Shown: positions 13,233-53,742, counted from the first letter of the stretch. The stretch is DNA of 64,000 nt from Gemmatimonadota bacterium (GCA_003222195.1 QHVB01000030.1:114883-178882), one strand, 5' to 3'. Notes: generated from the letters alone by a model not told the origin. Translations and numbers: made by a program.

Positions 13233-13240
<8 letters not shown>
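12734..13240 (+). CDS. MogA/MoaB molybdopterin adenylyltransferase family protein
   Basis: ILTISD, TTGGTG, RDVTPEA, SRGRAG, NLPGS; GTGA overlap with gcvT. Confidence 0.88.
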
Positions 13241-14780
<1,540 letters not shown>

Positions 14781-14861
14781 CCCCGCCCCAAAAACATCGC
14801 TCCCAGAGTCTCTAGCGCCCTGCTCGGAGCCCCCGGAGCCCTTGGAGCCGCTGGAGCACGC

Positions 14862-16571
14862 GTGGATTTTAGAATCGACCCCGAGTTGTGCGTCGCGTGC
14901 TTGGCGTGTGTGCGCGTCTGCCCCTCCGATGCCGTCGCGGTCGAAGGCGAAAGAGTCTGGATTGTGGACGAGGCCTGCACCCGCGTCGGCCTCTGCCTGC
15001 CTGCATGCCCCCACGAAGCCATCATTGCCGTCGGTGACGCGACACGGGCGCTGGAATTCGCGCTCAGCCGCCAGGCCGTGCTCATCCTCGCTGTCGAGTC
15101 GGCGGCCTGGTTCTATCCGGCAACGCCCGAGCAGGTCGTCAACGCCTGCTACGCCGCCGGCTTCGGCACTGTCCACCGCGGCGTGCTGGGGGACGAGCTG
15201 GTGGCCAAGCAATACCTCGACCTCTGGGCCGAGGAGGAGTGGGGGACGGGGGGGACGGTGATTCGCAGTACCTGTCCCGTCATCGTGGAGACGATCAAGA
15301 ACCAGTATCCCGAGCTGATCCCCTATCTCGCCCCGGTGGCGACCCCGATCGAGGCGGAGGCCCGGTATCTCAAGGCGCTGTACGGGGCGGATACCCCCAT
15401 CGTGTACGCCGGCGTCTGCCTGACGGAGGGGGGCGACGACGTGGATGCCGCCATCACGCTCAGCGAGCTGGAGGGGATCCTCAAGAAGCGGGGCGTTCGG
15501 GTCCAGGACCAGCCGTTGTTCTACAGCCGCATTCCGGAGGAGCGGCGCCGCTACTGGAGCACCGCGGGCGGCCTGCCGATCGAGTTATTAAAGGAAGAGC
15601 GGCAGTCGAGCCGCCGCTTCCGCAAGGTTCGGGGACTCGGGGCGCTGGAAGGGATCGCACGCGCGGTGGCCGTGGACCGCATCGACCTGGGCTTCGTCGA
15701 CATCCTGCCTTGCGAGGGCTGTCTCGACCATCCGCTGCTCGGCCCCAAAGAGGAGCTGTTCCGCCGCCGGGCGATCGTGGGGGCGACCGAGCCGCCGCGC
15801 GCGCTGGGGCCGGTGCTGGCCGACGGGATCGAGATCGACGTGGGCTCCGCGTTCGCGATCGCGGTGAACGGCGTGGCGCCGTCGGCCGAGTCGGTGGAGG
15901 ACATCCTGGAGCAGATCGGGCTCGCGCCCAACGGCCGCCCCTGGGATTCGGGCGCCTGCGGCTACGAGACCTGCCAGGACTTCGCGGTGGCGGCGGCGCA
16001 GGGGCGGACATCGCTGAAGTCGTGCCCGCGCTATCTCGAGCGGCAGGCGGCGCTGGCGCAGCAGCAGGCGGCGGTCGATGCGCTGACGGGTCTGGCGTCG
16101 TTCCGCGTGTTGCGCGACCGGTTGGCCAACGAGGTGGCGCGCTGTCACCGCAGCGGCGAGCATTTTGCCGTGCTGTTTCTGGACCTCGACAATTTCAAAC
16201 AGGTGAACGACCGGTTCGGGCACGAGGCGGGGAACGCGGTGCTGCGCGAGACGGCGCAACGGTGTACCGCCCACATCCGGTCGACCGACCTGGCGGGCCG
16301 CTATGGCGGCGACGAGTTCGTTGTGGTATTGGTAGGGACGGGTGTAGATGGAGCGCGCGGCGTCGCCGAGAAAGTGCGCGCGGCGGTCGAGGAAGCGGGG
16401 GTGGGGATGGGCTATCCGGCGGGCGTCGTGACGGCGAGCATTGGGGTCGCCGAGTACGGGCCGGACAAGAAGGACGAGGACGTGCTGGTCGCGGCGGACC
16501 GGGCGTTGTATCGGGCCAAGGCCGCGGGCCGCAATCAGGTTGCCACCAGTGAGGAGGAGCAAGCCACGTGA
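14862..16571 (+). CDS. Diguanylate cyclase with N-terminal 2x[4Fe-4S] ferredoxin, [FeFe]-hydrogenase-large-subunit-like domain and Fe-S linker
   Basis: CVACLACVRVCP/CTRVGLCLPACP; STCP, GVC and LPCEGC; DSGACGYETC...CP; DALTGL, DLDNFKQVNDRFGH, RSTD I-site, RYGGDEF. Confidence 0.85.
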   Translation: MDFRIDPELCVACLACVRVCPSDAVAVEGERVWIVDEACTRVGLCLPACPHEAIIAVGDATRALEFALSRQAVLILAVESAAWFYPATPEQVVNACYAAGFGTVHRGVLGDELVAKQYLDLWAEEEWGTGGTVIRSTCPVIVETIKNQYPELIPYLAPVATPIEAEARYLKALYGADTPIVYAGVCLTEGGDDVDAAITLSELEGILKKRGVRVQDQPLFYSRIPEERRRYWSTAGGLPIELLKEERQSSRRFRKVRGLGALEGIARAVAVDRIDLGFVDILPCEGCLDHPLLGPKEELFRRRAIVGATEPPRALGPVLADGIEIDVGSAFAIAVNGVAPSAESVEDILEQIGLAPNGRPWDSGACGYETCQDFAVAAAQGRTSLKSCPRYLERQAALAQQQAAVDALTGLASFRVLRDRLANEVARCHRSGEHFAVLFLDLDNFKQVNDRFGHEAGNAVLRETAQRCTAHIRSTDLAGRYGGDEFVVVLVGTGVDGARGVAEKVRAAVEEAGVGMGYPAGVVTASIGVAEYGPDKKDEDVLVAADRALYRAKAAGRNQVATSEEEQAT

Positions 16572-17290
16572 CTTCCAGTTTCGAGCCCGCGTCGGATCAG
16601 TCGTTGCCACTCGGCGGTGGAACGCCCGATCCGTGGGGGATGAAGCGGGTGGAGAATCTGATCACGGCACTGACGGGCGTCTTGTCGGCGCGCGTCGTCG
16701 TGACGCCGCTGGGCGAAGTGAGCGAGGTGCACGTCCTCACCAAGAGCGACATCCACCCCAAGCAGGTCGTCCGCAACATCGAGTCGGCGCTGATGGCGCA
16801 GCTCGGCTTCAAGATCGATCATCGCAAGATCAGCGTGGCGCAGACGGCGGATGTGCGGCCGATCGAGGCGCTGCAGGAAGAGGCGATCAGCGAGCGCTCC
16901 AAGCGGCGCGTCGTGGTGTTCAAGAGCCTCGAGGTGCGGCCGTCGGAGCGCCCGCAGCGCGTGCAGGTCCGCGTGAAGCTGGCGTTCGGCGACAAGGAGG
17001 CGCAGGCCGAGGAGGTGGGGACCGACACGACGCGCAATCGGGTGGAAGCGGCGGCGCGCGCCACGGCGAGCTGTCTCGACGATTTGCTGCCTGACAATTC
17101 GATCGCGCTCGAGGGCGCCCAGATCATCGATGCGTTCGATCGCAAATTCGTCCTCGTCGCTTGCCACGGCCTCGGCGGGCGCGAAGCGCAATTACTCACC
17201 GGAACCTGCGAGATTCGCGAATCGGCCGAGCGCAGCGCGGTGCTCGCGGTGCTCGATGCAACCAATCGCTGGGTCGACGCCAGGCGTTAA
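16568..17290 (+). CDS. Conserved hypothetical protein (EVHVLT...PKQVVRNIESALMA...IDHRKISVAQ family)
   Basis: GTGA overlap with the cyclase stop; strong host-like codon bias. Confidence 0.8.
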   Translation: MTSSFEPASDQSLPLGGGTPDPWGMKRVENLITALTGVLSARVVVTPLGEVSEVHVLTKSDIHPKQVVRNIESALMAQLGFKIDHRKISVAQTADVRPIEALQEEAISERSKRRVVVFKSLEVRPSERPQRVQVRVKLAFGDKEAQAEEVGTDTTRNRVEAAARATASCLDDLLPDNSIALEGAQIIDAFDRKFVLVACHGLGGREAQLLTGTCEIRESAERSAVLAVLDATNRWVDARR

Positions 17291-17327
17291 CTAGTTGTCT
17301 GTTTGCCACTTAGCGTCTTGGCGCCTC

Positions 17328-17350
17328 AGCGACCCGAAGTTCGGGTCGCT
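17328..17350. terminator. Hairpin after the hypothetical gene, possible terminator
   Basis: AGCGACCCGAA-G-TTCGGGTCGCT inverted repeat with a weak U-tract. Confidence 0.45.
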
Positions 17351-17424
17351 CCTTCCCGTAGTGGTTACGACTAGGGTCTAGTCCCATCTAGCGGACTTTC
17401 CGTTTTAGCAGTATTTCGGGTTTC

Positions 17425-18024
17425 GTGGCTCCTACTAGAACCAAGCGTTATTGGGGGACGCAGCGTGTGGCTCGCGTGCTGCAGGTGACGCCGGCTACGG
17501 TTGCGAACTGGATCGACCAGGGCCATTTGAAGGGGCATCGGACGCCGACGGGTCGCCGGCGCGTGGCGGCGGCGGATCTCGCCGAGTTTCTGCGGGCGCA
17601 CGGGATGGCGGTGCCCAATGAGCTGTCGACTGCGCGGGAGCGGCCGATCGTGGTGGTCGTCGAGGACGATCCCGGCTATCTGAAGGCGCTCGTCCGCATG
17701 GTGCAGCACGAGGCGCCGGAGGTGGAGGTCGTCGAAGCGATGACGGGCGTCGACGGGTTGCTCGAGATCGGCCGGGTGAGCCCCGATCTCGTTGTACTTG
17801 ACTATGCGTTGCCCGATTTGAACGCGGTGCAGATCGTGGAGCGGCTGGTAGACACGTCCAAACGACTGACTGCGCCCGTGATGATCGTCACGGGCGGAAT
17901 GCCGGCGAATGCCGAGCTTGATCTACGGCGGCTGGGCGTGCGGGCGATCGTGAACAAGGTGGACGGCATGGGGGTGGTTATCGAGGCAATGCGGCGTGTG
18001 TTGCAGGCGCGGAAGGTTGCGTAG
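17425..18024 (+). CDS. Response regulator with N-terminal excisionase-type HTH and C-terminal receiver domain
   Basis: VARVLQVTPATVANWIDQG..RTPTGRRRV; VVEDD, LVVLDYALP, IVTG, NK. Confidence 0.85.
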   Translation: MAPTRTKRYWGTQRVARVLQVTPATVANWIDQGHLKGHRTPTGRRRVAAADLAEFLRAHGMAVPNELSTARERPIVVVVEDDPGYLKALVRMVQHEAPEVEVVEAMTGVDGLLEIGRVSPDLVVLDYALPDLNAVQIVERLVDTSKRLTAPVMIVTGGMPANAELDLRRLGVRAIVNKVDGMGVVIEAMRRVLQARKVA

Positions 18025-18184
18025 TGGATTTTCCAAACGAATACAGGGGGCCCCGGGTCACCGCTAGCTAGAGCGGAGCGTAGCGAACAGTAGACGAGCG
18101 GAGCGTCGGGCACGCTATAGAGAGGCGTGCCACTCCTAGGCGAGGCTGTAACACTCGCTGGACCCAATAAGGGGGTGACGCTCA

Positions 18185-18259
18185 ATGTTGCAACTGCTCG
18201 CTTTTCTGTTCACAGCAGTCGCGAAGTTGTTTTTCGCAGATGGCACGGTTTCAATCTAG
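18185..18259 (+). CDS. Putative 24-aa hydrophobic peptide MLQLLAFLFTAVAKLFFADGTVSI (below ORF-track cutoff)
   Basis: AAGGGGGTGA RBS at 18169-18178, ATG at 18185, TAG at 18257-18259. Confidence 0.6.
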   Translation: MLQLLAFLFTAVAKLFFADGTVSI

Positions 18260-18332
18260 CGATGGCGTAGGGCCCCCTCGGTTTTCTTGGTCACGTGTCT
18301 CCTTGGTCGCGTGTCTCCTGGAAGGGATTTGG

Positions 18333-19703
18333 ATGGGCGAGAGTCAGCCCCGATTCGACCGATGGAGCTTTCGGCTGCTGCTCGTCGCGGTTGGCATGGC
18401 AGCGGTTTCGCTGCTATTCCTTAGCGACTGGTACATACCCCCTATCGCAAACACGGGATTCTGGAATGGTTTCGTAGCTTTCACACTGTTGGGGATTGCT
18501 AGCGACTCCGCGTTTCTTCCCGTCCCTCGGATTTCACAGGCTCGTGTTGGCTCATCCGTCGTATTCATTCCGTTTCTTGCCTCGGTGCTGTTATTTGCTC
18601 CACCGTGGCCCATGGTAATCGCTGGCACGACTGGGTTGGTTGCCCACTACGTAGTAAGACGCAAGAACTTGGTACGAGCAGCGTTTAACACGGCTCAATA
18701 CATGCTGTTTGTTGGATTGGGCGGTTTGGTATATACCGCACTGGGCGGTCATGTTGGATTCGATGCCGTTCATGTGAACTTCACCGCGTTTGCAGCTCTG
18801 GTCCTGGTTTTCTTTGTGGTAAATCAGGGAACCGTGGCTCTCGCGGTCTCGGCGAGTACTGACATTTCAATTCGTGAAGCTTGGACGCGAATCGCCGGGG
18901 ATTCGATTCTTTATGATCTTGTTTCCAGCTCGCTAGCAATCGCGCTCGCCTTTCTGTTCATCAGGTTACAAATAGTTGGGCTCGCGGTGCTTGTACTGCC
19001 GCTGTTCTTCGTGCGTCACATGTATCAGATGAACATTCGGGCAGAGCGCGCGAACAGGGAACTTCTTGAGCTCATGGTGAAAGCAATTGAAGCTCGAGAC
19101 CCTTACACCTCTGGGCACTCGGTACGCGTTGCAGAGTACGCGCGATCAATGGCGCGTGAACTGGGATTGCCGCCGAAACATGTCGATGATATCGCGACCG
19201 CTGCTCTCTTGCATGACGTTGGCAAGATTCACGAGGACTTTGCTCCACTTCTCCGAAAGGCTGGCCGCCTCACCCCCGAAGAACGAATGCTAATGCAGGC
19301 ACATCCCGTTCGTAGCGCGGACCTCGCAGGGACTATTGGAGAATTCCGTGGTAGGGTGCAAACAGACATTCGTAACCATCACGAGAACTATGATGGCACC
19401 GGCTATCCTGATGGTCTTGTGGGTGAGGGAATACCAATTGGTGCCCGAATCATCATGGTTGCGGACACGATCGATGCAATGACAACTGACCGTCCGTACA
19501 GAAAGGCACTTAGCCTTCAGAAGGCCTTGGAGGAAATGTTCAAGCATGCGGGTCGTCAGTTTGACCCGAAGCTAGTAGAACTTGTGACAAAGTCTCCAAG
19601 TATAAGGCGCCTGCTTGGGCCGCAACTGGTGTCGGAGCCACGAACAGTTCCCAGCATGGAGGCCCCTTCGAGAATTCGTGGGGGAACTCGCGCAGCTACC
19701 TGA
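18333..19703 (+). CDS. Membrane-bound HD-GYP cyclic dinucleotide phosphodiesterase
   Basis: About 7-8 hydrophobic N-terminal segments; EARDPYTSGHS, LLHDVGK, HHENYDGTGYPDGL, RPYR. Alternative upstream ATG at 18240. Confidence 0.9.
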   Translation: MGESQPRFDRWSFRLLLVAVGMAAVSLLFLSDWYIPPIANTGFWNGFVAFTLLGIASDSAFLPVPRISQARVGSSVVFIPFLASVLLFAPPWPMVIAGTTGLVAHYVVRRKNLVRAAFNTAQYMLFVGLGGLVYTALGGHVGFDAVHVNFTAFAALVLVFFVVNQGTVALAVSASTDISIREAWTRIAGDSILYDLVSSSLAIALAFLFIRLQIVGLAVLVLPLFFVRHMYQMNIRAERANRELLELMVKAIEARDPYTSGHSVRVAEYARSMARELGLPPKHVDDIATAALLHDVGKIHEDFAPLLRKAGRLTPEERMLMQAHPVRSADLAGTIGEFRGRVQTDIRNHHENYDGTGYPDGLVGEGIPIGARIIMVADTIDAMTTDRPYRKALSLQKALEEMFKHAGRQFDPKLVELVTKSPSIRRLLGPQLVSEPRTVPSMEAPSRIRGGTRAAT

Positions 19704-19868
19704 CCAACGCAGCGGACTGAAAATGCGTCCCTGGCTCGACACACCTCGATCCTTCTCGCGTTAACTCGTTGATTCTCGCCGCTGGTTCTGACCAAGCCGT
19801 CCCATGCTGTTCACGCTGTACCAAGCTGTTTCGAGTGTGAGTCCCGCTGTTTGTCCCGCTGTCGTGCC

Positions 19869-20405
19869 CTAGGGCTTCACGCGGAGGCCCTTCAGAAGGT
19901 CGTCGAGCCGTTTCAGTCGAGCATTCAGATCGGGGTCGTTAGTGTCCATCGTCCCACGCTCGTCGCGTTCCTTCGTCACAATGGCCATAGCAAAGAACAC
20001 CCTGACCACTTCCCGGGCTTCTCGGCGAAGGTCGCTGGAAGCTTGTGGGGCCTCACTGGCCATCGTCGTCAGCCAGGTGGCCATCAAATCCCCGGGTGTG
20101 GAACCCCTCATGGTCAGACGCCTCAAGAGCGTCTTCACGTCCTGGCCTTGGCGTTCCTGTTGAATTTGTAGCGACGCCTGCGTCGCCAGAGCGCGAATGT
20201 GGTCATCAATAGCCTTCGTTTCATCTCTGCGCTCGTCGCCGTGTCTGAAGTACTCCAGAGAACCAATGAGTACGGCAAGGACGACGGCCAGGTCCGCAAT
20301 GACGTGCAGCGTGTCGGGGATGACGTGCAGCAGGTCGGGGTGCAAGATGGCCGACACGACCACGAGCAAGAGCAAGGCGGCTGCTGCTATCAGAGCGCGG
20401 TTCAT
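19869..20405 (-). CDS. Hypothetical protein with two N-terminal TM helices
   Basis: 178-aa ORF with a hydrophobic N-terminus; no recognised motif. Confidence 0.55.
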   Translation of the reverse strand: MNRALIAAAALLLLVVVSAILHPDLLHVIPDTLHVIADLAVVLAVLIGSLEYFRHGDERRDETKAIDDHIRALATQASLQIQQERQGQDVKTLLRRLTMRGSTPGDLMATWLTTMASEAPQASSDLRREAREVVRVFFAMAIVTKERDERGTMDTNDPDLNARLKRLDDLLKGLRVKP

Positions 20406-20416
20406 GTCGGTGGCGC

Positions 20417-20590
20417 TTAGTCGTCGAGCTTCGCCTCTTGAGGCAACGTAGTCCGGATGGTCAACGTGAGCCGCTCAGATGCGGCGGCCAGCTTGGACTC
20501 TTCCCAGTCCCGTGAAGCACCACTCAGCGGTGCTGGTTCAAACGTCAACGGTGCGTGACAGATCGGACAGGACCGCTCTACGCCGCTCAC
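20417..20590 (-). CDS. Small hypothetical protein or fragment with a single CPIC motif
   Basis: GTG start overlaps the upstream stop (GTGA); only half of a zinc ribbon. Confidence 0.3.
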   Translation of the reverse strand: MSGVERSCPICHAPLTFEPAPLSGASRDWEESKLAAASERLTLTIRTTLPQEAKLDD

Positions 20591-21285
20591 TGACCACCCG
20601 CTTCCCGAACCTCGTAGTTGACGGTCGAGTTCTCGCGTTCCGCGTTTGCTGCCCTGACGGTGAGCATGAGCGGGTGCTTGCCCGGTCGTGTGCTGTTCTT
20701 GACCTTGCAGGCCAGGTCCACTTCCCACTTGTCGCCGCCATCTATCGTCGCCCGCTGCGCTCGCGCCTTTGACTTTTGAGGCGCAGAGAACGCACCGGCT
20801 GGCACCATCGACACCTCGACGTTGACCGCAGTCTTCTCGCCCATGTTGAACACGGCGGCATGGTAGCGTGCCTCGCCTCCGGGATACACGACTGCGGAGT
20901 ACCCACCAGCGAGACTGAGCCTCGCGGGCTTTAGTCGCTTCGACTTCGCCAGCCAGTGAAGCTCTCCCGTATCACTCACGGCCAAAAGTCCTACGCCGAG
21001 ACTGGCGGACAGAGCCAGCACGTCCTCCGACATGAAGACCTTCGGCCCGCAGACGTACATCTCGTCCACTTCAAAGAGACGAAGGAGCGCTTGGCTCTTG
21101 GTGAGATCGTCGAGCAACCCGCGAGCCGTGAACTTGACCTCGACGCCTTTCCGAACACCGTCCGCGACCGCAAGCATGTCGAGCCGGTGTCGGCTACCGA
21201 CCGGCACCTCGCGCTGAACATCGTGGCCCGCTTGATGGAGAGCCTTCTGCACGAAGTCTGCGAACTCACGCTCGTTGCGGAACAT
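20587..21285 (-). CDS. PD-(D/E)XK restriction-endonuclease-like domain fused to a C-terminal Ig-like beta domain
   Basis: EREF..VQREV..RLDML..GVEVK; C-terminal VYPGGE..VFNMGEKTAVNVEV..PGKHPLMLTV. Start could be 21336. Confidence 0.6.
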   Translation of the reverse strand: MFRNEREFADFVQKALHQAGHDVQREVPVGSRHRLDMLAVADGVRKGVEVKFTARGLLDDLTKSQALLRLFEVDEMYVCGPKVFMSEDVLALSASLGVGLLAVSDTGELHWLAKSKRLKPARLSLAGGYSAVVYPGGEARYHAAVFNMGEKTAVNVEVSMVPAGAFSAPQKSKARAQRATIDGGDKWEVDLACKVKNSTRPGKHPLMLTVRAANAERENSTVNYEVREAGGQ

Positions 21286-21770
21286 AGTCTGGGAATTATC
21301 GCTGCGAGCGGCGGCGATCACCAGCGACTCAAGCACGTCGATGTACCCTGAGGCGAGCTACCTCATTGCTGACAGGGCCGGCCAGCCACGCGGATCGCTA
21401 CCTTTTTAAGCGCCTCGCTCGTCCTGACGCACCTCTCCAGTAGCTCAGCGGCAACCGGCACCTCGGTCCCATCGAGCGGCTTGTCTCCGCGTTCGTCGAG
21501 GTAAGCCTGAACAGCCGGAAAAGCGGCATCGAGCGGAATGAGTACGACCTGCATGACTTTCAACGCTAGGACACTGCATCAACCAGTCGTCAACGCTACG
21601 CCTTCTTAGGCGGGCATTATTTGGCCGGGCTGGTTGTTTACGAACGCAGAATGGACCTAGCGCGTCTCCGAGCCGAGTACCACCTTGGCACGATCAAACG
21701 CCTACTGCTCACTAGGGGAGAATTTGAGGCGCCTTGAAGCCGTAGCCGATTTGGCAGAGATCGTCGGTAA

Positions 21771-22785
21771 ATGACGACGACGCCCGAGCAAATCGATCAG
21801 TGGCGCCAATCGCCCTCTGAACATGAGCGCCTAGAGTTCAAAGAGGCAAAGAACCAGTTCGACAACCGCAAGCTGTACGAGTACTGCGTGGCAATCGCCA
21901 ACGAGGGAGGTGGCCGCCTCCTGCTGGGCGTATCTAACGTGCCGCCTCGTCAGGTTGTCGGATCACAGGCTTTTAATGACGTAGTCGTCATGGCGGAAAA
22001 GGTCTTCCAGACGGTCGGGTTTCGCGTGGACATGGAGGAGGTCCAACACCCGGATGGCCGAGTCGTTGTCTGTCACGTTCCGTCCCGGCCCCGGGGGAGC
22101 GCCTACCACCTAGCGGGGAAGTACTTGATGCGTTCTGGAGAATCCCTCGTCCCTATGTCGGAAGACCGGCTCCGGGTGATTTTCGATGAAGGACGGCCAG
22201 ACTGGCTCACGGAAGCAGCGCGAACAGGTTTGGCAGATGCCGCTGTTGTCGACCTGCTCGATACGCAAGCCTATTTCGAACTGCTGAAGCTACCGTACCC
22301 CGCTACGCGTCAGGGCGTCATCGATCGTTTGATTCGGGAACATCTGATTCTGGACAATGGCGGCGCATTCACCATCACCAACCTTGGTGCACTCCTGTTC
22401 GCAAAGCGATTCGATGAATTCGGTGATCTTGCAAGGAAGCGGTATCGATAAAGTCGTGGATGCAGCCGAGGTCTTCCAGCTTCCAGCGCCCGAGTTTCGA
22501 GTGGACAACGTGAGGACAACTTGCGTCCTCTACGGCCAGCGATCCTTCGCCCGAATGAGCCGGGAGGACCGTATTCGGGCGTGCTACCAACACGCATGTT
22601 TGCGTTACGTTCTGCGGGATACGATGAGCAACCAGTCGCTGCGTAATCGGTTTGGCTTGCCCGATGAGAGAGCGGAGACGGTCTCGCGGATTCTCCGAGA
22701 CACACTGGATGCGCGGCTGGTCAAACTGGAGGACCCAGCGAGCGGTTCAAAAAAGTACGCTCGCTACGTGCCCTTCTGGGCTTGA
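21771..22785 (+). pseudogene. Schlafen/AlbA_2-domain ATP-binding protein with internal deletion and frameshift
   Basis: N-terminal EHERLEFKEAK..AIANEGGG in one frame; C-terminal GSGIDKV...RIRACYQHACL...YVPFWA in another. The frames join near 22432-22440. Confidence 0.75.
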
Positions 22786-23111
22786 CGATTATTTAGATTC
22801 GAACCTGTAACTAGCGGGTTCGGAAACCTAAGTGCTTATCTGTGAAGTAGATACATATTTTGGCCCATTTTGGTCATCGTTGGCTCACGCCGGACTGCTC
22901 CTCACTATCCTCGACAGAGTAAACATTACTTCGATTCGGGATGAGACCATTACAGAGGACCAGCGGTGACGATCTCAGTCGTTGAGATTCGGCCAGGACG
23001 TTGGGCCTACATGATCGACGGGAAGTTTTCCGCTGATCTCTACGCTGCCCACCTCGCTGCGGTGGCATAGCTGAGCAGGAGGGCTCGAACCCCCCTGCTT
23101 CTCTCTTCGAT

Positions 23112-24260
23112 ATGCCCAAGAGCGCGCCCGCCCTAATTGAGCCCGCCCTTCTGATATGGGGCCGGAAGGTTGCTCGATTGACGGTTGAGGACGCGGCTAA
23201 GAAGACTCACGTTAAGGCGGAGCAACTCGAAGCATGGGAGCGCGGCAAGGGTCACCCAACAGTCAAGCAGCTTAGGGCGCTCGCGCACGTCTATCAGCAA
23301 TCCTTCGCTGCCTTCTATCTACCTGTACCGCCCCTAGAAGAGGTAGCGGTTCCGCCTGACCGTCGTCGGCTCCCAAGTGACCAACTTGAGCAGCTATCTC
23401 CAGCCGCCGCTTTGGACCTCAGGACAGCTTGGGAGCACCGTGAAATAGTGCTCGAACTGCTTCGAGATCAAGGACAGACTCCGATAGCCGTTGAGGCCGT
23501 CGCTTCCACGGACGAGAACCCAGAAAGCGTTGGAGAGAAAGTTCGGAAGGTTCTCAGGATCAGCTACGAAGTGCAGAAGGAATGGCGAGACAAGCGAGTT
23601 GCGTTCAATGCGTGGCGAGACGCAGCGGGGGAGGCAGGCGTTCTCGTTTTTCAGGCCACTAATGTCCCTGTTGCCGAGTTGCGCGGCTATTCAATCAGCG
23701 TTGACCCTCTTCCGGTAGTTGTTGTCAATCGAAAGGACAGCTACGCCGGTCGTAGCTTCACCTTGCTACACGAGATGACGCATATCCTCCTTCGCTCGGG
23801 CGGACTATGTGATCTCGAAGGCGAGCAAGCAATAGAAATTTTCTGCAATCACGCGGCGGGTGCGGCACTGGTGCCGTCTGGGTCTCTCCTCAAGGAACAA
23901 ACCGTCCTGGCCCACGGGGAGAGCCCGGAGTGGGAAGACGAGGAAATTGAAATACTCGCGCAGACATACAGCGTCAGCGAAGAGGTATTGGTCAGGCGCC
24001 TTCTTACCCTGAGACTCACCACAAAGACCTTCTACGAAAAGAAGCGCCGTCAGTACCTTGACGAATTTGCGCGGCTCCCCAAGAAGAAGGGCTTCGTCTC
24101 CCCTGCCGTGGACGCGGTAAGCGCATTGGGCAAGCCCTACGTGCGGCTCGTTCTGGATGCGTTCCGATCCTTGAAACTGACTGCGAACGATGTGGCTGAC
24201 TATCTGGGCGTGCGACTCAAACACCTGGACGCGGTAGGTCACGCCGTCGAAGGTGAGTGA
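23112..24260 (+). CDS. XRE HTH + ImmA/IrrE-family zinc metallopeptidase
   Basis: N-terminal HTH (AWERGKGHPT), FTLLHEMTH (HExxH), EIFCNHAAG, VSEEVLVRRL. Confidence 0.88.
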   Translation: MPKSAPALIEPALLIWGRKVARLTVEDAAKKTHVKAEQLEAWERGKGHPTVKQLRALAHVYQQSFAAFYLPVPPLEEVAVPPDRRRLPSDQLEQLSPAAALDLRTAWEHREIVLELLRDQGQTPIAVEAVASTDENPESVGEKVRKVLRISYEVQKEWRDKRVAFNAWRDAAGEAGVLVFQATNVPVAELRGYSISVDPLPVVVVNRKDSYAGRSFTLLHEMTHILLRSGGLCDLEGEQAIEIFCNHAAGAALVPSGSLLKEQTVLAHGESPEWEDEEIEILAQTYSVSEEVLVRRLLTLRLTTKTFYEKKRRQYLDEFARLPKKKGFVSPAVDAVSALGKPYVRLVLDAFRSLKLTANDVADYLGVRLKHLDAVGHAVEGE

Positions 24261-24269
24261 TTCCACACC

Positions 24270-24746
24270 ATGGGGTCACTCTTCGCGAAATACATCGTGG
24301 ACACGTCTTCCTTCACATCACTGCAACGCACATACCCAAGAGACGTTCTCCCTGGCGTGTGGACACTCGTTGACAAACTCTCGCGGAACGGTGTGCTCCT
24401 ATCGGTCGAAGACGTGTTCGAGGAATTGAAGGGGCAGGACGATGAAGTCTTCAAGTGGGCGAAGAAGAATAAGTCAATCTTCTTACCACTCGACGAGGCC
24501 ATACAGGTACAGGCAAGGGCGATTCTAGCGGAGCGGCCTAATCTTGTGGACCTCAAGCGGAGAAAGTCAGGGGCCGATCCGTTTGTAATCGCCGCAGCCG
24601 CCGTCTATTCTTGCGCGGTCGTCACAGAGGAAAAACCGAGCGGAGGCCCTCCGAAGGTAAAGATTCCAGATGTGTGCAAGCACTTCAACATCGGGTGCAT
24701 CACGGTGCTGGACATGCTGCGAGACGAGGGCTTAAGACTCAAATGA
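24270..24746 (+). CDS. PIN-domain protein (DUF4411-like), putative toxin
   Basis: YIVDTSS, VFEEL, ADPFVIA, VVTEE, KIPDVC; directly after the XRE-ImmA gene. Confidence 0.82.
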   Translation: MGSLFAKYIVDTSSFTSLQRTYPRDVLPGVWTLVDKLSRNGVLLSVEDVFEELKGQDDEVFKWAKKNKSIFLPLDEAIQVQARAILAERPNLVDLKRRKSGADPFVIAAAAVYSCAVVTEEKPSGGPPKVKIPDVCKHFNIGCITVLDMLRDEGLRLK

Positions 24747-24852
24747 CAAGCCAAGGAGGCGCTTTGGAGAACCAACGAAGCGAACTGGGGCAACGGGGAC
24801 GCGACTCAGCTGGCGAGGAAGGGGATTATGACAAAAAAATGAGACGCCCGGC

Positions 24853-24900
24853 GTCATCCTGAGCGAGCGCGCGGCACGCGCGCGAAGCGAAGGATCTGCT
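24853..24900. repeat. GTCATCCTGAGC...AGCGAAGGATCT-type palindromic intergenic element
   Basis: ATCCT/AGGAT arms enclosing CGCGCG-GCA-CGCGCG; AGGATCTGCT is repeated at about 24907-24916. Confidence 0.6.
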
Positions 24901-24975
24901 TGTCGTAGGATCTGCTGGTCATAGGCCCGCGCCCAGAGAAGGATCTTGTTGGATCGCACACCACTTCTTCTGCTG

Positions 24976-25443
24976 CTAAGGCGTGGGGACCAGATTCCGC
25001 GCGATTTGGTCCGCATCAGCATCCTGGATGCCTGGTTTCGCGAACGTGCTAATGCGGGTCGGATATCCCAACTGCGGATCAAATTCTACGATCACGTCTC
25101 GCACCCAATCGTCGCGCTGGTAGCGCTCTATCCGGGCGAACAAGCCGTCTACCGTCGTAAACGAAGTCCAGTCTTGGGGCGAGAGCGCGGAGTCGTTGGC
25201 CACGCGAACAACCCCGACCACCTGCCCGTTGCTCACCGCAACTCGCGCCCATTGGCGCACGATGTCCGGGCACTCGCCGCAGCTTATCACGAAGTCGTAC
25301 GTGTATGCCTGGAACGGCCGAGCTGCCCAACGAGCCTTCGCCCTACCGAGGGCGAGAACCTCGCTATTGGATAACGGCGAGGAGCACGCCGCGAGCAGAC
25401 AGCTCAATACTCCGATTAGGAGAACCCGAGTGTGCCGCGGCAT
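24976..25443 (-). CDS. Putative lipoprotein (DUF6174-like)
   Basis: LLAAC lipobox; ARW...YTY...CGEC...TVDGLF...FDPQLGYPT. Confidence 0.7.
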   Translation of the reverse strand: MPRHTRVLLIGVLSCLLAACSSPLSNSEVLALGRAKARWAARPFQAYTYDFVISCGECPDIVRQWARVAVSNGQVVGVVRVANDSALSPQDWTSFTTVDGLFARIERYQRDDWVRDVIVEFDPQLGYPTRISTFAKPGIQDADADQIARNLVPTP

Positions 25444-25498
25444 GGCGCCCTGAATGAGAATCCGAACTAGATACCCTCGGCCCTACCCACCGGGTCAC

Positions 25499-26020
25499 CT
25501 AACGCGCCGCCTTCCGCAGCTCCCCAAATGCGTCAGTCAGCTCAGGCAGTTGATGATTGGCATTGAGGCCGCTGGGCTGAGGTAGCAACCACAACCGCGC
25601 CGGCCCGAGGCGCTCCGGCTGCGGACCGATCATGGCCCGCGGCCGCCCGAACGCCACGCGATACGCCCCGATCCCTACCACCGCCACCCACTTCGGCCGA
25701 TAGCGCTGCACCTTCCGTTCGAGCCGCCGCGCGCCGGCCACGAACTCCTCCCTGGCCAGCTCGGCCGCCGTCGCGGTCGCGCGCGCCACGAGATTCGTGA
25801 TCCCGTAGCCGCGCTCCAGCAGCTCCCGCTCTTCCCATGGCGCGAGCACGCGATCGGTGAACGCGGCGCGCTGCAGCACCGGCCAGAACCGGTTGCCAGG
25901 CCGTGCGAAGTGGTGACCGGTCGCGCCGGAGTAGAGACCGGGATTGATGCCGCAGAACAACACCCGCAACCCCCGCGCGATCACATCCGGCACCGTGCGA
26001 CCCGCCGCCGCGAGCACCAC
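25499..26020 (-). CDS. mug: G/U mismatch-specific DNA glycosylase
   Basis: VLFCGINPGLYS, HHFARPGNRFW, GITNLV, PSGLNA. Confidence 0.92.
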   Translation of the reverse strand: MVLAAAGRTVPDVIARGLRVLFCGINPGLYSGATGHHFARPGNRFWPVLQRAAFTDRVLAPWEERELLERGYGITNLVARATATAAELAREEFVAGARRLERKVQRYRPKWVAVVGIGAYRVAFGRPRAMIGPQPERLGPARLWLLPQPSGLNANHQLPELTDAFGELRKAAR

Positions 26021-51372: not shown

Positions 51373-52481
51373 ACAGGCTGCAGTTTGTGGCGCGCCTGGG
51401 AATCGTGGGCGGGCTGTGGACGTTGCTCAACGTTTACGTTGGCGCGCACCTGCTCGGCCCCGCGCCCCTCGCCGGCCTGCCGCGCCTGCTCGCCTGGGGC
51501 GCCGTGGTGATAGTCGCCTGGCTGCCCCTGGTGGCGCTCGCGACCGCGCGTCGTGAGACCGACGGGAGTCATCACCGCGGGTCTTTGATACGGCTGCTCG
51601 ACTGGGCGGCCTACACGATGATGGGGCTGTCGTCGTTGCTGATCGTGGCCTTCTTCGTCACCGATCTCCTCCGCCTGCCCGCCAGCGCCAGGGTGGTCCT
51701 GGTCGTCGTGAGCGGCGCCGCGCTGCTGACGCTCGTCGGCATCGTGCTTGCGCGCCGGCCGCGCGTGGTTCGCGTGACGGTACCGATCGCTGATCTCCCC
51801 AGCGACCTCGCCGGATTTCGGATTCTCCAGCTCAGCGATCTGCACATCGGACCCACGATCCGGCGCCGGTTCGTGGACGCAGTTGTCGACCGGGCAAACG
51901 CGTTACGGCCGGATCTCGTTGCGGTGACGGGCGACGTCGCCGATGGGCTCGTGCCGGAGCTGCGCGAGCATGTGGCCCCGCTCGGCCGCCTCCACGCGCC
52001 GTACGGCTCGTACTTCGTGACGGGCAATCACGAGTACTACTGGGATGTGCGCGGCTGGATCGCTGAGCTGCGGCGACTCGGGATGGAAGTTCTCTCGAAT
52101 GAACATCGGATCGTGCAGCGTGGGGCGGGGCGCCTGCTGCTTGCCGGCGTCACCGACCTCTCAGCCGCGTCCGATCCGGCCGGTGCCGTGGCTGGGGCGC
52201 CGCCGAGCGACGTGCGCGTGTTGCTGGCGCACCAGCCGCGCAGCGCATTCGCCGCCCAGGCAGCGGGCTACGACCTGCAACTGTCAGGGCACACGCACGG
52301 CGGCCAGTACTTTCCCTTCAATCTGCTCGTGCGGCTGTTTCAACCGTTTGTCGCCGGACTGCATCGTCTGGAGTCGATGTGGCTCTATGTGAGCCGGGGA
52401 ACCGGCTACTGGGGTCCGCCGCTCCGGCTCGGCGCGCCGGCTGAGATCACGCTGCTCGAGCTTCAGCCATCGCCGCGGTGA
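51369..52481 (+). CDS. Membrane-anchored metallophosphoesterase
   Basis: SDLH, TGD, GNHE, LAHQP, SGHTHGGQ. Confidence 0.9.
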   Translation: MNRLQFVARLGIVGGLWTLLNVYVGAHLLGPAPLAGLPRLLAWGAVVIVAWLPLVALATARRETDGSHHRGSLIRLLDWAAYTMMGLSSLLIVAFFVTDLLRLPASARVVLVVVSGAALLTLVGIVLARRPRVVRVTVPIADLPSDLAGFRILQLSDLHIGPTIRRRFVDAVVDRANALRPDLVAVTGDVADGLVPELREHVAPLGRLHAPYGSYFVTGNHEYYWDVRGWIAELRRLGMEVLSNEHRIVQRGAGRLLLAGVTDLSAASDPAGAVAGAPPSDVRVLLAHQPRSAFAAQAAGYDLQLSGHTHGGQYFPFNLLVRLFQPFVAGLHRLESMWLYVSRGTGYWGPPLRLGAPAEITLLELQPSPR

Positions 52482-53670
52482 CCAACAGGGCGCGCACGAT
52501 GCCGAGCGCGCCCTTGTCGTTTTCGTACCACTCGGTCGGCAGATGGGCATCGCCCGCTCGACCTCCCGCTCCCAGCGCGACAGCCGGGACTCCGAGCGCG
52601 ATCGGGATATTGGCGTCGGTGGAGGCGCACGCGAGCTGATGCTCGTGGCCGACGGCTCGGGTCGCGGCGACGGCGGTCTGCACGAGCGGGTGAGTGCGCG
52701 GCGTCAGACCCGAGGGCCGGTCGCCGACGCGCTGGACCTCCATCGTCAGTGGAGCCGTACCGGGAAGCCGGTGCCGATTTTCCTCGTCGCGCGCGTCCGC
52801 AACCACCGCCTGCAGCGTCTCATCGATTCGCTGGAGCGAGCGCGGATCCTCGCTGCGCAGATCGATCTCGAACCACGCGACCTGTGGTATTGAGTTGAGA
52901 CTCGTGCCCCCGCCGAGGCGCGTCACGGCGCAGGTACTGCGCGGTGAGTGTTGTGCGGGGAGATCGGCCAACAGGGCGGTTGCCCGTCCTACCGCGTTTG
53001 CTGGATTGGCCACGCCAAAGGCCGCCCACGAGTGTCCACCGGGCCCCGTGTACGTGATCCGGTAGCGTCGAGCCCCGAGCGCGCGGTGGACGATGCGTTC
53101 GATGCCGGCGCCGTCCAGCGCGATGAAGGCATGCGGGCGAATGCGGCCGTCGAGCAGGTGACGCACGCCGCGGAGATCTCCCGATCCTTCCTCGCCCACG
53201 GTCGCTGCAAAGAGGATGGGACGTTCCGTGGCCACTCGAGCGCGGGTGAGTGCTTCACCGAGCGACACCAGCGCCGCGAGACCGCGCGCGTTGTCGGCGA
53301 TGCCAGGTCCTTCGAGACGTGGCCCACGCCGCGCCACGGAGACGTCCAGCTCGGGGCCAAAGACGGTGTCGAGGTGCGCGGTTACCACGACACATCCGTG
53401 GTGTAGGGGCGCAGCATGCTGCGCCCCTACTCCGTCGCTGGAACCGGTTCGATACCAACCCCGCACATTCCCAACTTCATCCATCTCGACATTCTTCAGG
53501 CCCGCCTCGCACAACATTTCAGCCACGCGCGCCCCGCGTGCGGCCTCCGCACCCGTGGGTGCCGGGATCGCCGACAGCGCTGCCTGGCGGGCGAGCGTCA
53601 CCTCGTCCGAATGCTCGATGTGTGCTCGGGCTGCACGGATCCGGTCATTGGCGAGAAGCGCGGCAATCAC
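52447..53670 (-). CDS. M20/M25/M40 family metallo-hydrolase
   Basis: AHLDTV, GIADN, VGEEG, GGHSW, STDAN, AHLPTEW. Confidence 0.88.
   Translation of the reverse strand: MIAALLANDRIRAARAHIEHSDEVTLARQAALSAIPAPTGAEAARGARVAEMLCEAGLKNVEMDEVGNVRGWYRTGSSDGVGAQHAAPLHHGCVVVTAHLDTVFGPELDVSVARRGPRLEGPGIADNARGLAALVSLGEALTRARVATERPILFAATVGEEGSGDLRGVRHLLDGRIRPHAFIALDGAGIERIVHRALGARRYRITYTGPGGHSWAAFGVANPANAVGRATALLADLPAQHSPRSTCAVTRLGGGTSLNSIPQVAWFEIDLRSEDPRSLQRIDETLQAVVADARDEENRHRLPGTAPLTMEVQRVGDRPSGLTPRTHPLVQTAVAATRAVGHEHQLACASTDANIPIALGVPAVALGAGGRAGDAHLPTEWYENDKGALGIVRALLVTAAMAEARAA
53403..53430. repeat. REP-like palindrome copy 5, in-frame inside the M20 hydrolase
   Basis: Perfect 28-mer, read as VGAQHAAPL on the minus strand. 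Confidence 0.92.
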
Positions 53671-53742
53671 GGTGCCAAACTATGATGTCGTATGGCGCGG
53701 GTGCAACTTGACCTGGATTGTAGCGGGGGCGACACTAAACCC

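Follow-up and report, generated by a model that had tools for sequence, protein, structure and literature searches.

A degenerate [FeFe]-hydrogenase domain fused to a GGDEF cyclase in soil Gemmatimonadota: a putative iron-sulphur-gated signalling enzyme

A 64,000-nt stretch of DNA from a Gemmatimonadota bacterium (GCA_003222195.1, QHVB01000030.1:114883-178882; the window in what follows) carries, at positions 14862..16571 of its plus strand, a gene for a hydrogenase-like iron-sulphur (Fe-S) protein joined to a GGDEF domain. The source is a soil member of the Gemmatimonadales with a genome of 3.5 Mb in 95 contigs, 99.79% complete. A preliminary description made from the sequence alone had read the product as an [FeFe]-hydrogenase-like diguanylate cyclase that probably lacks a full H-cluster and senses O2, nitric oxide (NO) or iron instead of H2. 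The motifs on which it relied, namely the ferredoxin motif CVACLACVRVCP (C10-C20), STCP (136-139), GVCLTEG (184-190), DILPCEGC (280-287) and DSGACGYETC (362-371), are all present in the translation. The GTG start codon is preceded by GGAG 7 nt upstream, and all of the 120 closest protein clusters listed hold orthologs with 85-97% identity. A Pfam scan resolved four parts, in the order ferredoxin-like domain, H-domain, PF04060 motif and GGDEF domain. The features of the gene are as follows.

14862..16571, plus strand: putative hydrogenase-like Fe-S sensor fused to GGDEF, open reading frame (ORF) of 569 aa with GTG start
14871..15023, plus strand: ferredoxin-like domain, residues 4-54 (Pfam Fer4, E 1.6e-9; Fer4_10, E 6e-9)
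14985..14987, plus strand: codon of Val42, the site of the eighth ferredoxin Cys, where relatives read CxxCGxC
15120..15725, plus strand: degenerate [FeFe]-hydrogenase H-domain, residues 87-288 (Fe_hyd_lg_C, PF02906, and Foldseek)
15267..15278, plus strand: P1 remnant S-T-C-P (136-139), with Thr137 in place of the proton-relay Cys and ligand Cys138 retained, both in 120/120 clusters
15411..15431, plus strand: P2 remnant G-V-C-L-T-E-G (184-190), with Cys186 retained, Met-Pro replaced by Gly184-Val185 and Lys by Glu189
15699..15722, plus strand: P3 remnant D-I-L-P-C-E-G-C (280-287), with Cys284 and Cys287 in Cx2C spacing, both in 120/120 clusters
15945..16028, plus strand: C-terminal Fe-S motif D-S363-x2-C366-x4-C371-x16-C388 (PF04060), its first Cys replaced by Ser
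16026..16070, plus strand: predicted helix 389-403 joining the C-terminal Fe-S motif to GGDEF, a candidate signalling helix (DSSP on the structural model)
16068..16538, plus strand: GGDEF domain, residues 403-559 (PF00990, E 1.4e-41; TIGR00254, 159.5 bits; GGDEF matches in the PDB)
16233..16235, plus strand: Asn458 at the nucleotide-specificity position (PleD D344, GacA S348), where 'GHEAGN' is aligned to 'GHQAGD' and 'GHNIGD' of solved cyclases
16278..16319, plus strand: I-site R473-x-x-D476 and active-site G482-G-D-E-F486, present in 120/120 closest clusters

The preliminary description had proposed a profile search, a structure prediction and a genome search for hydE, hydF and hydG, and all three were carried out. 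In the profile search Fe_hyd_lg_C, FeS and GGDEF each gave a match that was over cut-off or significant. PF02906 matched with E 9.3e-17 and 61.9 bits (cut-off 22.1), and the alignment covers profile positions 25-242 of 245; relatives whose motifs are intact score 96-188 bits. The hydrogenase model TIGR04105 of NCBIfam stayed under its threshold (108.2 bits; cut-off 450). PF04060 (FeS) matched residues 364-389 with E 3.9e-7 and 30.1 bits (cut-off 23). The AlphaFold2 (AF2) model, built from 67 sequences, has a mean predicted local distance difference test score (pLDDT) of 88.0. With Foldseek, its first ~400 residues matched apo-CbA5H (9f46_B; E 4.4e-14, 400 alignment columns) and variants of Desulfovibrio desulfuricans HydAB, and its last third matched GGDEF domains. 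The match to CbA5H supports the hydrogenase fold of the middle domain.

Degenerate H-cluster site, maturases and origin

The motifs were placed at P1, P2 and P3 by HMMER alignment to the solved hydrogenases 7qv7_D and 8a6t_A, where they stand opposite FTSCCPAW, MPCIGKK and EVMTCpEGC; the whole-protein matches behind these alignments are weak (E 0.049 and 0.32; query residues 60-400). As second reference we took L025:838-2556, a true hydrogenase that belongs to the same phylum but to a different family. It reads MPCTAKKFE at P2 and EVMTCPGGCVGGGGQP at P3, and the alignment to it agrees with that to the solved proteins. Its P1 motif is TSCSPGW, compared with the usual TSCCPxW.

All four Cys ligands of the [4Fe-4S]H cubane (C138, C186, C284 and C287) are retained, and are present in 120/120 closest clusters. 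The diiron-pocket residues are replaced. In addition to the P2 substitutions given above, the P3 Met is replaced by Leu282, the Ala-Pro-Ser stretch by Ala-Val78-Glu79, and P3 is followed by DHPLLGP at the place of the canonical GGGxP. Position 189, the site of the P2 Lys, is Glu in 114, Lys in five and Gln in one of the 120 closest clusters, and Glu or Asp among the orthologs. The roles given here to pocket residues are in part general knowledge, such as the contact of the P2 Lys with the distal cyanide ligand of the H-cluster. For the remainder we relied on PMC8163306. The motifs were thus rightly called degenerate: they align to P1, P2 and P3 with the pocket residues replaced.

The gene is the sole Fe_hyd_lg_C match in its genome. 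No hydE, hydF or hydG had been seen in the window, and this absence extends to the whole genome, in which HydF (96.5 bits; cut-off 325.55), HydG (20.2; 312.15) and HydE (32.2; 254.6) all remained below cut-off. In the control set these cut-offs were passed only by Bacteroides thetaiotaomicron and Thermotoga maritima. We also scanned 301 genomes of the phylum, 124 of them from the window's family (f1). A weak Fe_hyd_lg_C match (about 22-81 bits) was found in 113 of these 124 genomes, a count that includes the unpublished genome G085, and among the matches listed it mostly lay within an open frame of ~560-640 aa; HydG was found in 0/124. Hydrogenases scoring 316-323 bits occurred in only four genomes of the phylum, all of family f10, and HydG was found in exactly those four (three over cut-off, one truncated at 259 bits), besides one match below threshold in family f6. 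This pairing of HydG with true hydrogenases in f10 is a clean internal control for the scan. In these f10 genomes (G042, which holds L025 at G042:C13:25370-29224, G044, G057 and G061) a sensory-type paralog adjoins the true [FeFe]-hydrogenase gene, and in G042, G044 and G057 the contig also carries HydG at a short distance.

The window's genome encodes a heme-copper oxidase, and no [NiFe]-hydrogenase large subunit was detected in it. With no other hydrogenase in the genome, there is none for an H2 sensor to regulate. Taken together, the replaced pocket residues and the absence of maturases, both from the genome and from the 124 sampled genomes of the family, strongly support the conclusion that the protein has neither the diiron subcluster nor its pocket and so cannot activate H2, as the preliminary description had anticipated.

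Residues 1-400 were searched with HMMER against 1.84 billion cluster representatives, which gave 2943 matches at E<=1e-3 and 118 at E<=1e-30. Fe_hyd_lg_C was found in 55 of the 58 representatives scanned with Pfam (threshold 1e-5), usually together with Fer4 and PF04060; three of the 58 are fragments, one of which has an H-domain match. Among the 58, the outputs were GGDEF (19), HisKA/HATPase (19), sigma-54 activator (10), PAS or none (6) and methyl-accepting chemotaxis protein (1). These relatives represent the family known from the literature as putative sensory hydrogenases (PMC8163306, PMC8924675), and the earlier comparison with group C/D sensory enzymes fused to signalling domains is borne out by these relatives and by the published HydS layout (PMC8163306).

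A quick maximum-likelihood tree of the N-terminal ~400 residues was calculated from 65 rows, with Shimodaira-Hasegawa approximate likelihood ratio (SH-aLRT) support only, and was rooted on six PAS-only rows. The tree omits the fragments P0133, P0137 and P0138 and also L054, a partial match of 264 aa and 32% identity in genome G033 (family f2) that has none of the neighbour genes. The tree places the protein in a clade of 38 GGDEF-linked rows (support 100), which share the P1 reading IRSTCP. Nested in it is a degenerate clade of 27 rows (support 100), composed of Gemmatimonadota proteins and a few other representatives, and the P2 Lys was lost on the branch leading to it, which has a length of 0.98. 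The GGDEF fusions P0187 and P0212 arose separately, within the kinase/sigma-54 group. Most relatives share the Cx2C spacing of P3. These results show that putative sensory [FeFe]-hydrogenases, of HydS type and akin to groups C/D, are the ancestors of the N-terminal 400 residues.

Cluster ligand sites and the TamHydS precedent

For the ligand positions we compared the protein with 21 orthologs from 17 genera (16 of f1 and one of f6), giving a table of 22 rows from which L054 was again omitted. The ferredoxin domain has seven of the usual eight Cys (C10, C13, C16, C20, C39, C45 and C49). All seven are present in 120/120 closest clusters and are retained across the f1 orthologs, with the exception of L037 (Ser13). 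Its second motif, CTRVGLCLPACP, has three Cys instead of four. At position 42, the site of the missing Cys, the 120 closest clusters have Val (102), Ala (11) or Cys (7); among the 22 rows it is Cys in 14 and Val, Ala or Ser in eight, with Val in the query's genus.

The C-terminal motif aligns to the [4Fe-4S] motif of the corrinoid/Fe-S protein CFeSP (4djd_C; HMMER). Its first position, 363, is Ser in 120/120 closest clusters. In the table of 22 rows it is Cys in 18; L053 has a gap there, and Ser is confined to the query's genus (three rows). C388 occurs throughout the table, C366 and C371 throughout its 21 f1 rows. The preliminary description had noticed the Ser in this motif, which stands, and had missed the three-Cys second ferredoxin motif with Val42.

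The four Cys of the H-domain are all retained in 12 of the 22 rows, and the site is lost in ten, in which position 138 is Asp (nine f1 rows) or Ser (the f6 row). The 12 rows form subclade B, which includes the query (support 94; 55-89% identity) and keeps all four Cys in 12/12. In the closest clusters 15 Cys and Ser363 are invariant (120/120, at 85-97% identity). Such conservation shows that the ligand positions are under selection, in the query's genus including the H-domain cubane site; two other sites of the genus have each lost one ligand.

A published variant bears directly on Ser363. In TamHydS, the group D enzyme of Thermoanaerobacter mathranii, C379 and C404 are cluster-binding Cys, each preceded by Asp (PMC13104023, 2026). 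Since 379+25 = 404, C379 is the first Cys of the Cx2Cx4Cx16C motif; since 363+25 = 388, and D362-S363 is followed by C366, C371 and C388, Ser363 falls at exactly the position of C379. The engineered variant C379A thus lost the first Cys of the motif and kept the preceding Asp (D378-C379 there, D362-S363 here). It was stable and contained largely a [3Fe-4S] instead of a [4Fe-4S] cluster, for which its authors expect a more positive potential (PMC13104023). In contrast to C379A, the change described here is natural, is found in 120/120 close clusters and introduces Ser, not Ala, and Ser could ligate iron.

TmHydS of Thermotoga maritima (group C, M2f) and TamHydS (group D, M2e) have the same order of modules as the protein, that is, a ferredoxin-like part, an H-domain, a Cx2Cx4Cx16C-type motif and a signalling part (PMC8163306). 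The proton-relay Cys is absent from all three, and the protein nests among such relatives. Unlike TmHydS and TamHydS it has neither a diiron pocket nor maturases, has seven of eight ferredoxin Cys and three of four C-terminal Cys (Sx2Cx4Cx16C), and carries its GGDEF output directly after the C-terminal motif with no PAS match (PAS is specific to M2f). Its host is an aerobe without hydrogenases, whereas HydS genes often lie beside group A hydrogenase genes (PMC8163306), an arrangement of which L025 is a bona fide example in another family of the same phylum.

GGDEF output domain, neighbouring genes and occurrence

In the GGDEF domain D441, N449, R480, K553 and R557, assigned by motif alignment, are all present, and we take them to have their usual catalytic roles. 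Together with the GGDEF and RxxD motifs they show an intact cyclase core. The exception concerns specificity. Position 458 is Asn in 119/119 of the closest clusters with a residue there, and among the 22 ortholog rows it is Asn in 21, Ser in one and never Asp. The Ser is found in L044 (L044:4790-6466, genome G087), the lone exception, and is the residue of Hypr enzymes. The active-site motif of the orthologs is GGDEF, not GGEEF, except in L053 (GGDEL). Representatives with an intact H-domain have Asp at the specificity position in eight rows and Asn in one (P0166), and the other GGDEF domains of the window's genome have Asp in eight cases and Ser in one. The latter, at G000:C48:215244-215699, ~36 kb past the window end, reads 'GHLAGS', the published signature of Hypr enzymes, which form cyclic GMP-AMP (cGAMP).

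In PleD, Asp344 reads the Watson-Crick face of the base, and this Asp is conserved in strict cyclic di-GMP (c-di-GMP) synthases (PMC9140294, PMC6456294). Hypr enzymes, which represent 0.17% of GGDEF domains, have Ser or Thr at this position and produce cGAMP (PMC9140294, PMC6456294); the Ser/Thr variants go with GGDEF rather than GGEEF (PMC6456294). In having the specificity Asp replaced and GGDEF in place of GGEEF, a combination in line with that rule, the protein resembles the Hypr enzymes GacA of Geobacter and Bd0367 of Bdellovibrio (PMC6456294, PMC9140294). With Asn458 it nevertheless falls outside the Hypr signature (Ser/Thr plus GGDE[F/Y]); neither PMC6456294 nor PMC9140294 deals with Asn, and the sensor domains are unrelated, that of GacA being a receiver. 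Papers on an Asn at this position did not turn up in our literature searches, which did not extend to subscription journals. As an amide both donates and accepts hydrogen bonds, Asn could pair with adenine as well as with guanine. The label 'diguanylate cyclase' of the preliminary description is therefore uncertain: the GGDEF domain is intact, and its specificity for c-di-GMP is in doubt, since strict synthases have Asp where this protein has Asn458. That the product is not c-di-GMP only is a tentative suggestion, and the fixed Asn458 may mark an unrecognised class of GGDEF enzymes.

The genes beside the cyclase gene are the following.

13233..14780, plus strand: sigma-54 enhancer-binding protein (Pfam Sigma54_activat), upstream in 19/21 loci
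16568..17290, plus strand: orf240, a family-less partner of 240 aa whose GTG start overlaps the cyclase stop by 4 nt
17425..18024, plus strand: response regulator with HTH_17 and receiver (Pfam), an insert between orf240 and the HD-GYP gene
18240..19703, plus strand: MASE9 membrane domain with HD-GYP phosphodiesterase (Pfam HD_5, E 2.3e-41, and MASE9; HD and GYP motifs in the translation)

orf240 lies directly 3' of the cyclase gene in 21/21 orthologous loci, and a conserved N-terminal PDPWG upstream of its first internal ATG supports the GTG start. The HD-GYP gene follows downstream in all 16 loci that reach far enough, the five others stopping earlier at a contig end. Cyclase, orf240 and HD-GYP genes thus form a conserved three-gene module. 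The response regulator insert is confined to the query's genus and two related genera (L022, L023, L037 and L038). Within the genus the HD-GYP gene is the least conserved of the module, with 44% and 78% identity in two genomes compared with 83-90% for the cyclase, and a dip in G+C content (0.55-0.61 at 18001-26000 of the window, ~0.66 elsewhere) starts at this gene.

No Pfam family was found for orf240 at a useful E-value in 26/26 members (best TonB_C, 0.011, in five members). It has 5119 homologs, of which the 120 listed carry no Pfam domain and no more specific name than 'hypothetical protein'; its matches in the ESM Atlas are Gemmatimonadota hypothetical proteins only. The AF2 model (pLDDT 83) consists of a small alpha/beta domain and two beta-beta-beta-alpha repeats. 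With Foldseek, the repeats matched the leucine-binding regulatory domain of Mycobacterium tuberculosis LeuA (E 2.6e-6) and the regulatory domain of citramalate synthase (3f6g; template modelling score 0.54 on the target). Complex predictions of cyclase and orf240 scored 0.29 and 0.28 against a mark of 0.32, which is evidence neither for nor against binding.

Upstream, gcvT, a gene for a molybdopterin-binding protein and the sigma-54 activator gene are present in 19/21 loci, not always adjacent. The N-terminal ~130 residues of the activator have no Pfam match, and no receiver, GAF or PAS domain was detected in it. The spacer before the cyclase gene (14781-14861) contains no match to a sigma-54 -24/-12 promoter, and the window as a whole has 41 such matches, fewer than the mean of 61.6 in shuffled sequence. 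We thus have no evidence that the upstream activator drives the cyclase gene. The sole perfect TGGCAC-N5-TTGC of the window lies at 53663-53677 (minus strand), at the 5' end of an M20/M28 peptidase ORF (52447-53670, minus strand), and faces an HMGL-like gene on the opposite strand.

An ortholog of the cyclase occurs in 19 of the 24 other genomes of the genus, in 17 of them at full length; the count includes the unpublished genomes G009 and G017, and the genomes without a match include incomplete assemblies. Soil-metagenome runs of 16 studies hold the stretch, 18 runs having at least half of the sampled words; three of these 18 may be the source of this DNA. Two soil metatranscriptome runs contain contigs 92-99% identical to parts of the cyclase gene, among which one of 239 nt bridges the junction of cyclase and orf240 and one of 454 nt spans the upstream intergenic region. 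At window position 14835, in the spacer between activator and cyclase, one metatranscriptome contig of a close relative lacks 9 nt. Three pieces of 31-33 nt on the GGDEF region were disregarded, as their source contigs continue unlike the stretch. Cover is patchy (none, for example, on 15792-15973 and 16702-17400), which is not evidence of absence. Because carry-over of DNA is possible, the contigs give only a weak hint that the cyclase gene is transcribed.

Proposed function and alternative explanations

We consider it reasonably probable that the protein is a cyclase gated by redox state or O2 through its Fe-S clusters; the sensed signal and the assembly of the clusters are inferred. It would be a soluble signalling enzyme in which up to four ordinary Fe-S sites remain. 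Two would belong to the ferredoxin domain: a cluster with Cys ligands only (C10, C13, C16, C49) and a three-Cys site (C39, C45, C20) whose fourth position is Val42. The other two would be the site of the former [4Fe-4S]H cubane (C138, C186, C284, C287) and the C-terminal site (Ser363, C366, C371, C388). By analogy with TamHydS C379A, each of the two three-Cys sites probably contains either a [3Fe-4S] cluster or an incompletely ligated [4Fe-4S] cluster, with higher potential and greater lability. O2 and the reducing power of the cell would set the redox state or the integrity of the clusters, among which the C-terminal one may matter most because it directly precedes helix 389-403. Its state could pass through this helix to a parallel dimer and decide whether the two GGDEF half-sites meet, and the RxxD I-site would give feedback by the product. 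The product would be a cyclic dinucleotide, with c-di-GMP as the default assumption and its identity left open by Asn458. The co-conserved 240-aa protein probably reads or controls this product, and the neighbouring HD-GYP enzyme probably degrades it.

The AF2 model of TamHydS agrees with parts of this scheme, as it places the C-terminal cluster beside the N-terminal ferredoxin domain and predicts a parallel dimer along the C-terminal helix (PMC13104023). Such a dimer makes helix 389-403 a natural route for the signal to the GGDEF dimer and, with the closeness of the two clusters, would explain why the ferredoxin and C-terminal ligands are kept in lineages without the H-domain cubane.

Several observations weigh against Fe-S gating, and some of them speak for a rival reading, in which the Fe-S sites are structural leftovers of a fossil scaffold that stabilise the fold and transmit no signal, with control exerted by product inhibition at the I-site, by the 240-aa partner or by transcription. 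Subclade A of the same family (9 rows, support 99) has lost all four H-domain Cys in 9/9 and kept the gene module, and a separate sister group (P0124, P0142, P0145, P0160 and L053) lost them independently; the proteins remain full-length and the genomic rows keep the gene order. The H-domain cluster is therefore not a universal sensing site. The f6 ortholog L053 has in addition lost most ferredoxin and C-terminal ligands and yet keeps the cyclase-orf240-HD-GYP module, so that Fe-S sensing is not indispensable to the module everywhere. One N-terminal cluster of TamHydS is required for structural integrity, and its C-terminal cluster did not respond to H2, from which the authors infer that signalling through the redox state of that cluster is unlikely (PMC13104023). 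The partner itself, present at every locus, resembles in fold the allosteric domains of LeuA and of citramalate synthase. Our literature search found no experimental study on the protein or on other members of its clade. Set against a mere scaffold are the H-domain Cys kept throughout subclade B and the close clusters, the near-complete retention of C366, C371 and C388, and the fact that the two Cys losses of the genus concern single ligand positions and not whole sites, which looks like tuning and not decay. We think it unlikely that the sites are leftovers only.

Fe-S gating could also serve another signal within the same architecture. Labile three-Cys clusters might report NO or the cellular supply of iron and Fe-S clusters, as such clusters do in NsrR, IscR and aconitase/IRP1, and sites with incomplete Cys ligation (Val42, Ser363) are indeed present. 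No NO-detoxification or iron-uptake genes were seen beside the module, however, whose conserved upstream neighbours are those named above, and neither three-Cys site is clade-wide: Ser363 is confined to the genus, and position 42 lacks its Cys in only part of the family. This makes NO or iron a distinctly improbable signal. A true H2 sensor with a complete, HydS-like H-cluster is hardly conceivable and was rejected. In its favour, the four [4Fe-4S]H Cys including the bridging position are retained, and sensory hydrogenases normally do without the proton-relay Cys (PMC8163306). Against it, Glu or Asp stands in place of the P2 Lys, and substitutions affect the Met, Pro-Ser and GGGxP positions as well. 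The maturases are below cut-off in the genome, HydG was not found in the 124 family genomes sampled, and the organism respires aerobically and has no hydrogenase to regulate.

Sensory [FeFe]-hydrogenases are themselves still described as 'putative' sensors, with the exit route of the signal not known (PMC8924675, PMC13104023). In the literature searched we found nothing on bacterial hydrogenase-like sensors that are fused to GGDEF or lack the H-cluster, and the databases name these proteins 'diguanylate cyclase' or 'hypothetical protein'. Two further parallels come from elsewhere. DosC, a globin-coupled cyclase whose GGDEF domain (4zve) is among the PDB matches, senses O2 via heme, and like the protein described here it has a cofactor-bearing sensor N-terminal to GGDEF; where DosC has heme, the protein would use Fe-S clusters housed in a fold of hydrogenase descent. 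It would also resemble the eukaryotic hydrogenase-like protein Nar1/NARFL, which keeps the H-domain fold with only [4Fe-4S] clusters and is not known to have a diiron site or to depend on HydEFG. Nar1/NARFL differs in its N-terminal module, in the lack of a GGDEF domain and in its role in cytosolic Fe-S assembly (cluster delivery).

To this the window adds the genus-specific pair Ser363/Val42 with its match to C379A, the split between subclades in the H-domain Cys, and a family-wide control in which the protein is present and HydG absent. The clade is a natural experiment, in which the H2-activating site is gone while accessory clusters and an assayable output are combined in one soluble polypeptide. 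Related genera offer ready-made variants, with or without the H-domain cluster, with Cys or Val at position 42 and with Cys or Ser at position 363.

We also regard it as possible, if doubtful, that cyclase, orf240 and HD-GYP protein make up a self-contained circuit. In it, a GGDEF enzyme of an Asn type, gated by Fe-S clusters, would produce some dinucleotide instead of c-di-GMP or alongside it (e.g. 3',3'-cGAMP or c-di-AMP), orf240, with its LeuA-like ligand-binding repeats, would act as receptor or allosteric controller, and the HD-GYP enzyme as dedicated degrader. If true, nature would have solved the specificity position of GGDEF in a third way, with Asn besides Asp and Ser/Thr, and a whole family of soil Gemmatimonadota would link redox state to a messenger that is non-canonical. 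The protein is near-universal in the family (113/124 genomes) and occurs in soil runs of 16 studies; it is therefore likely one of the main links between redox or oxygen state and the control of lifestyle in these bacteria, which are abundant but seldom cultured.

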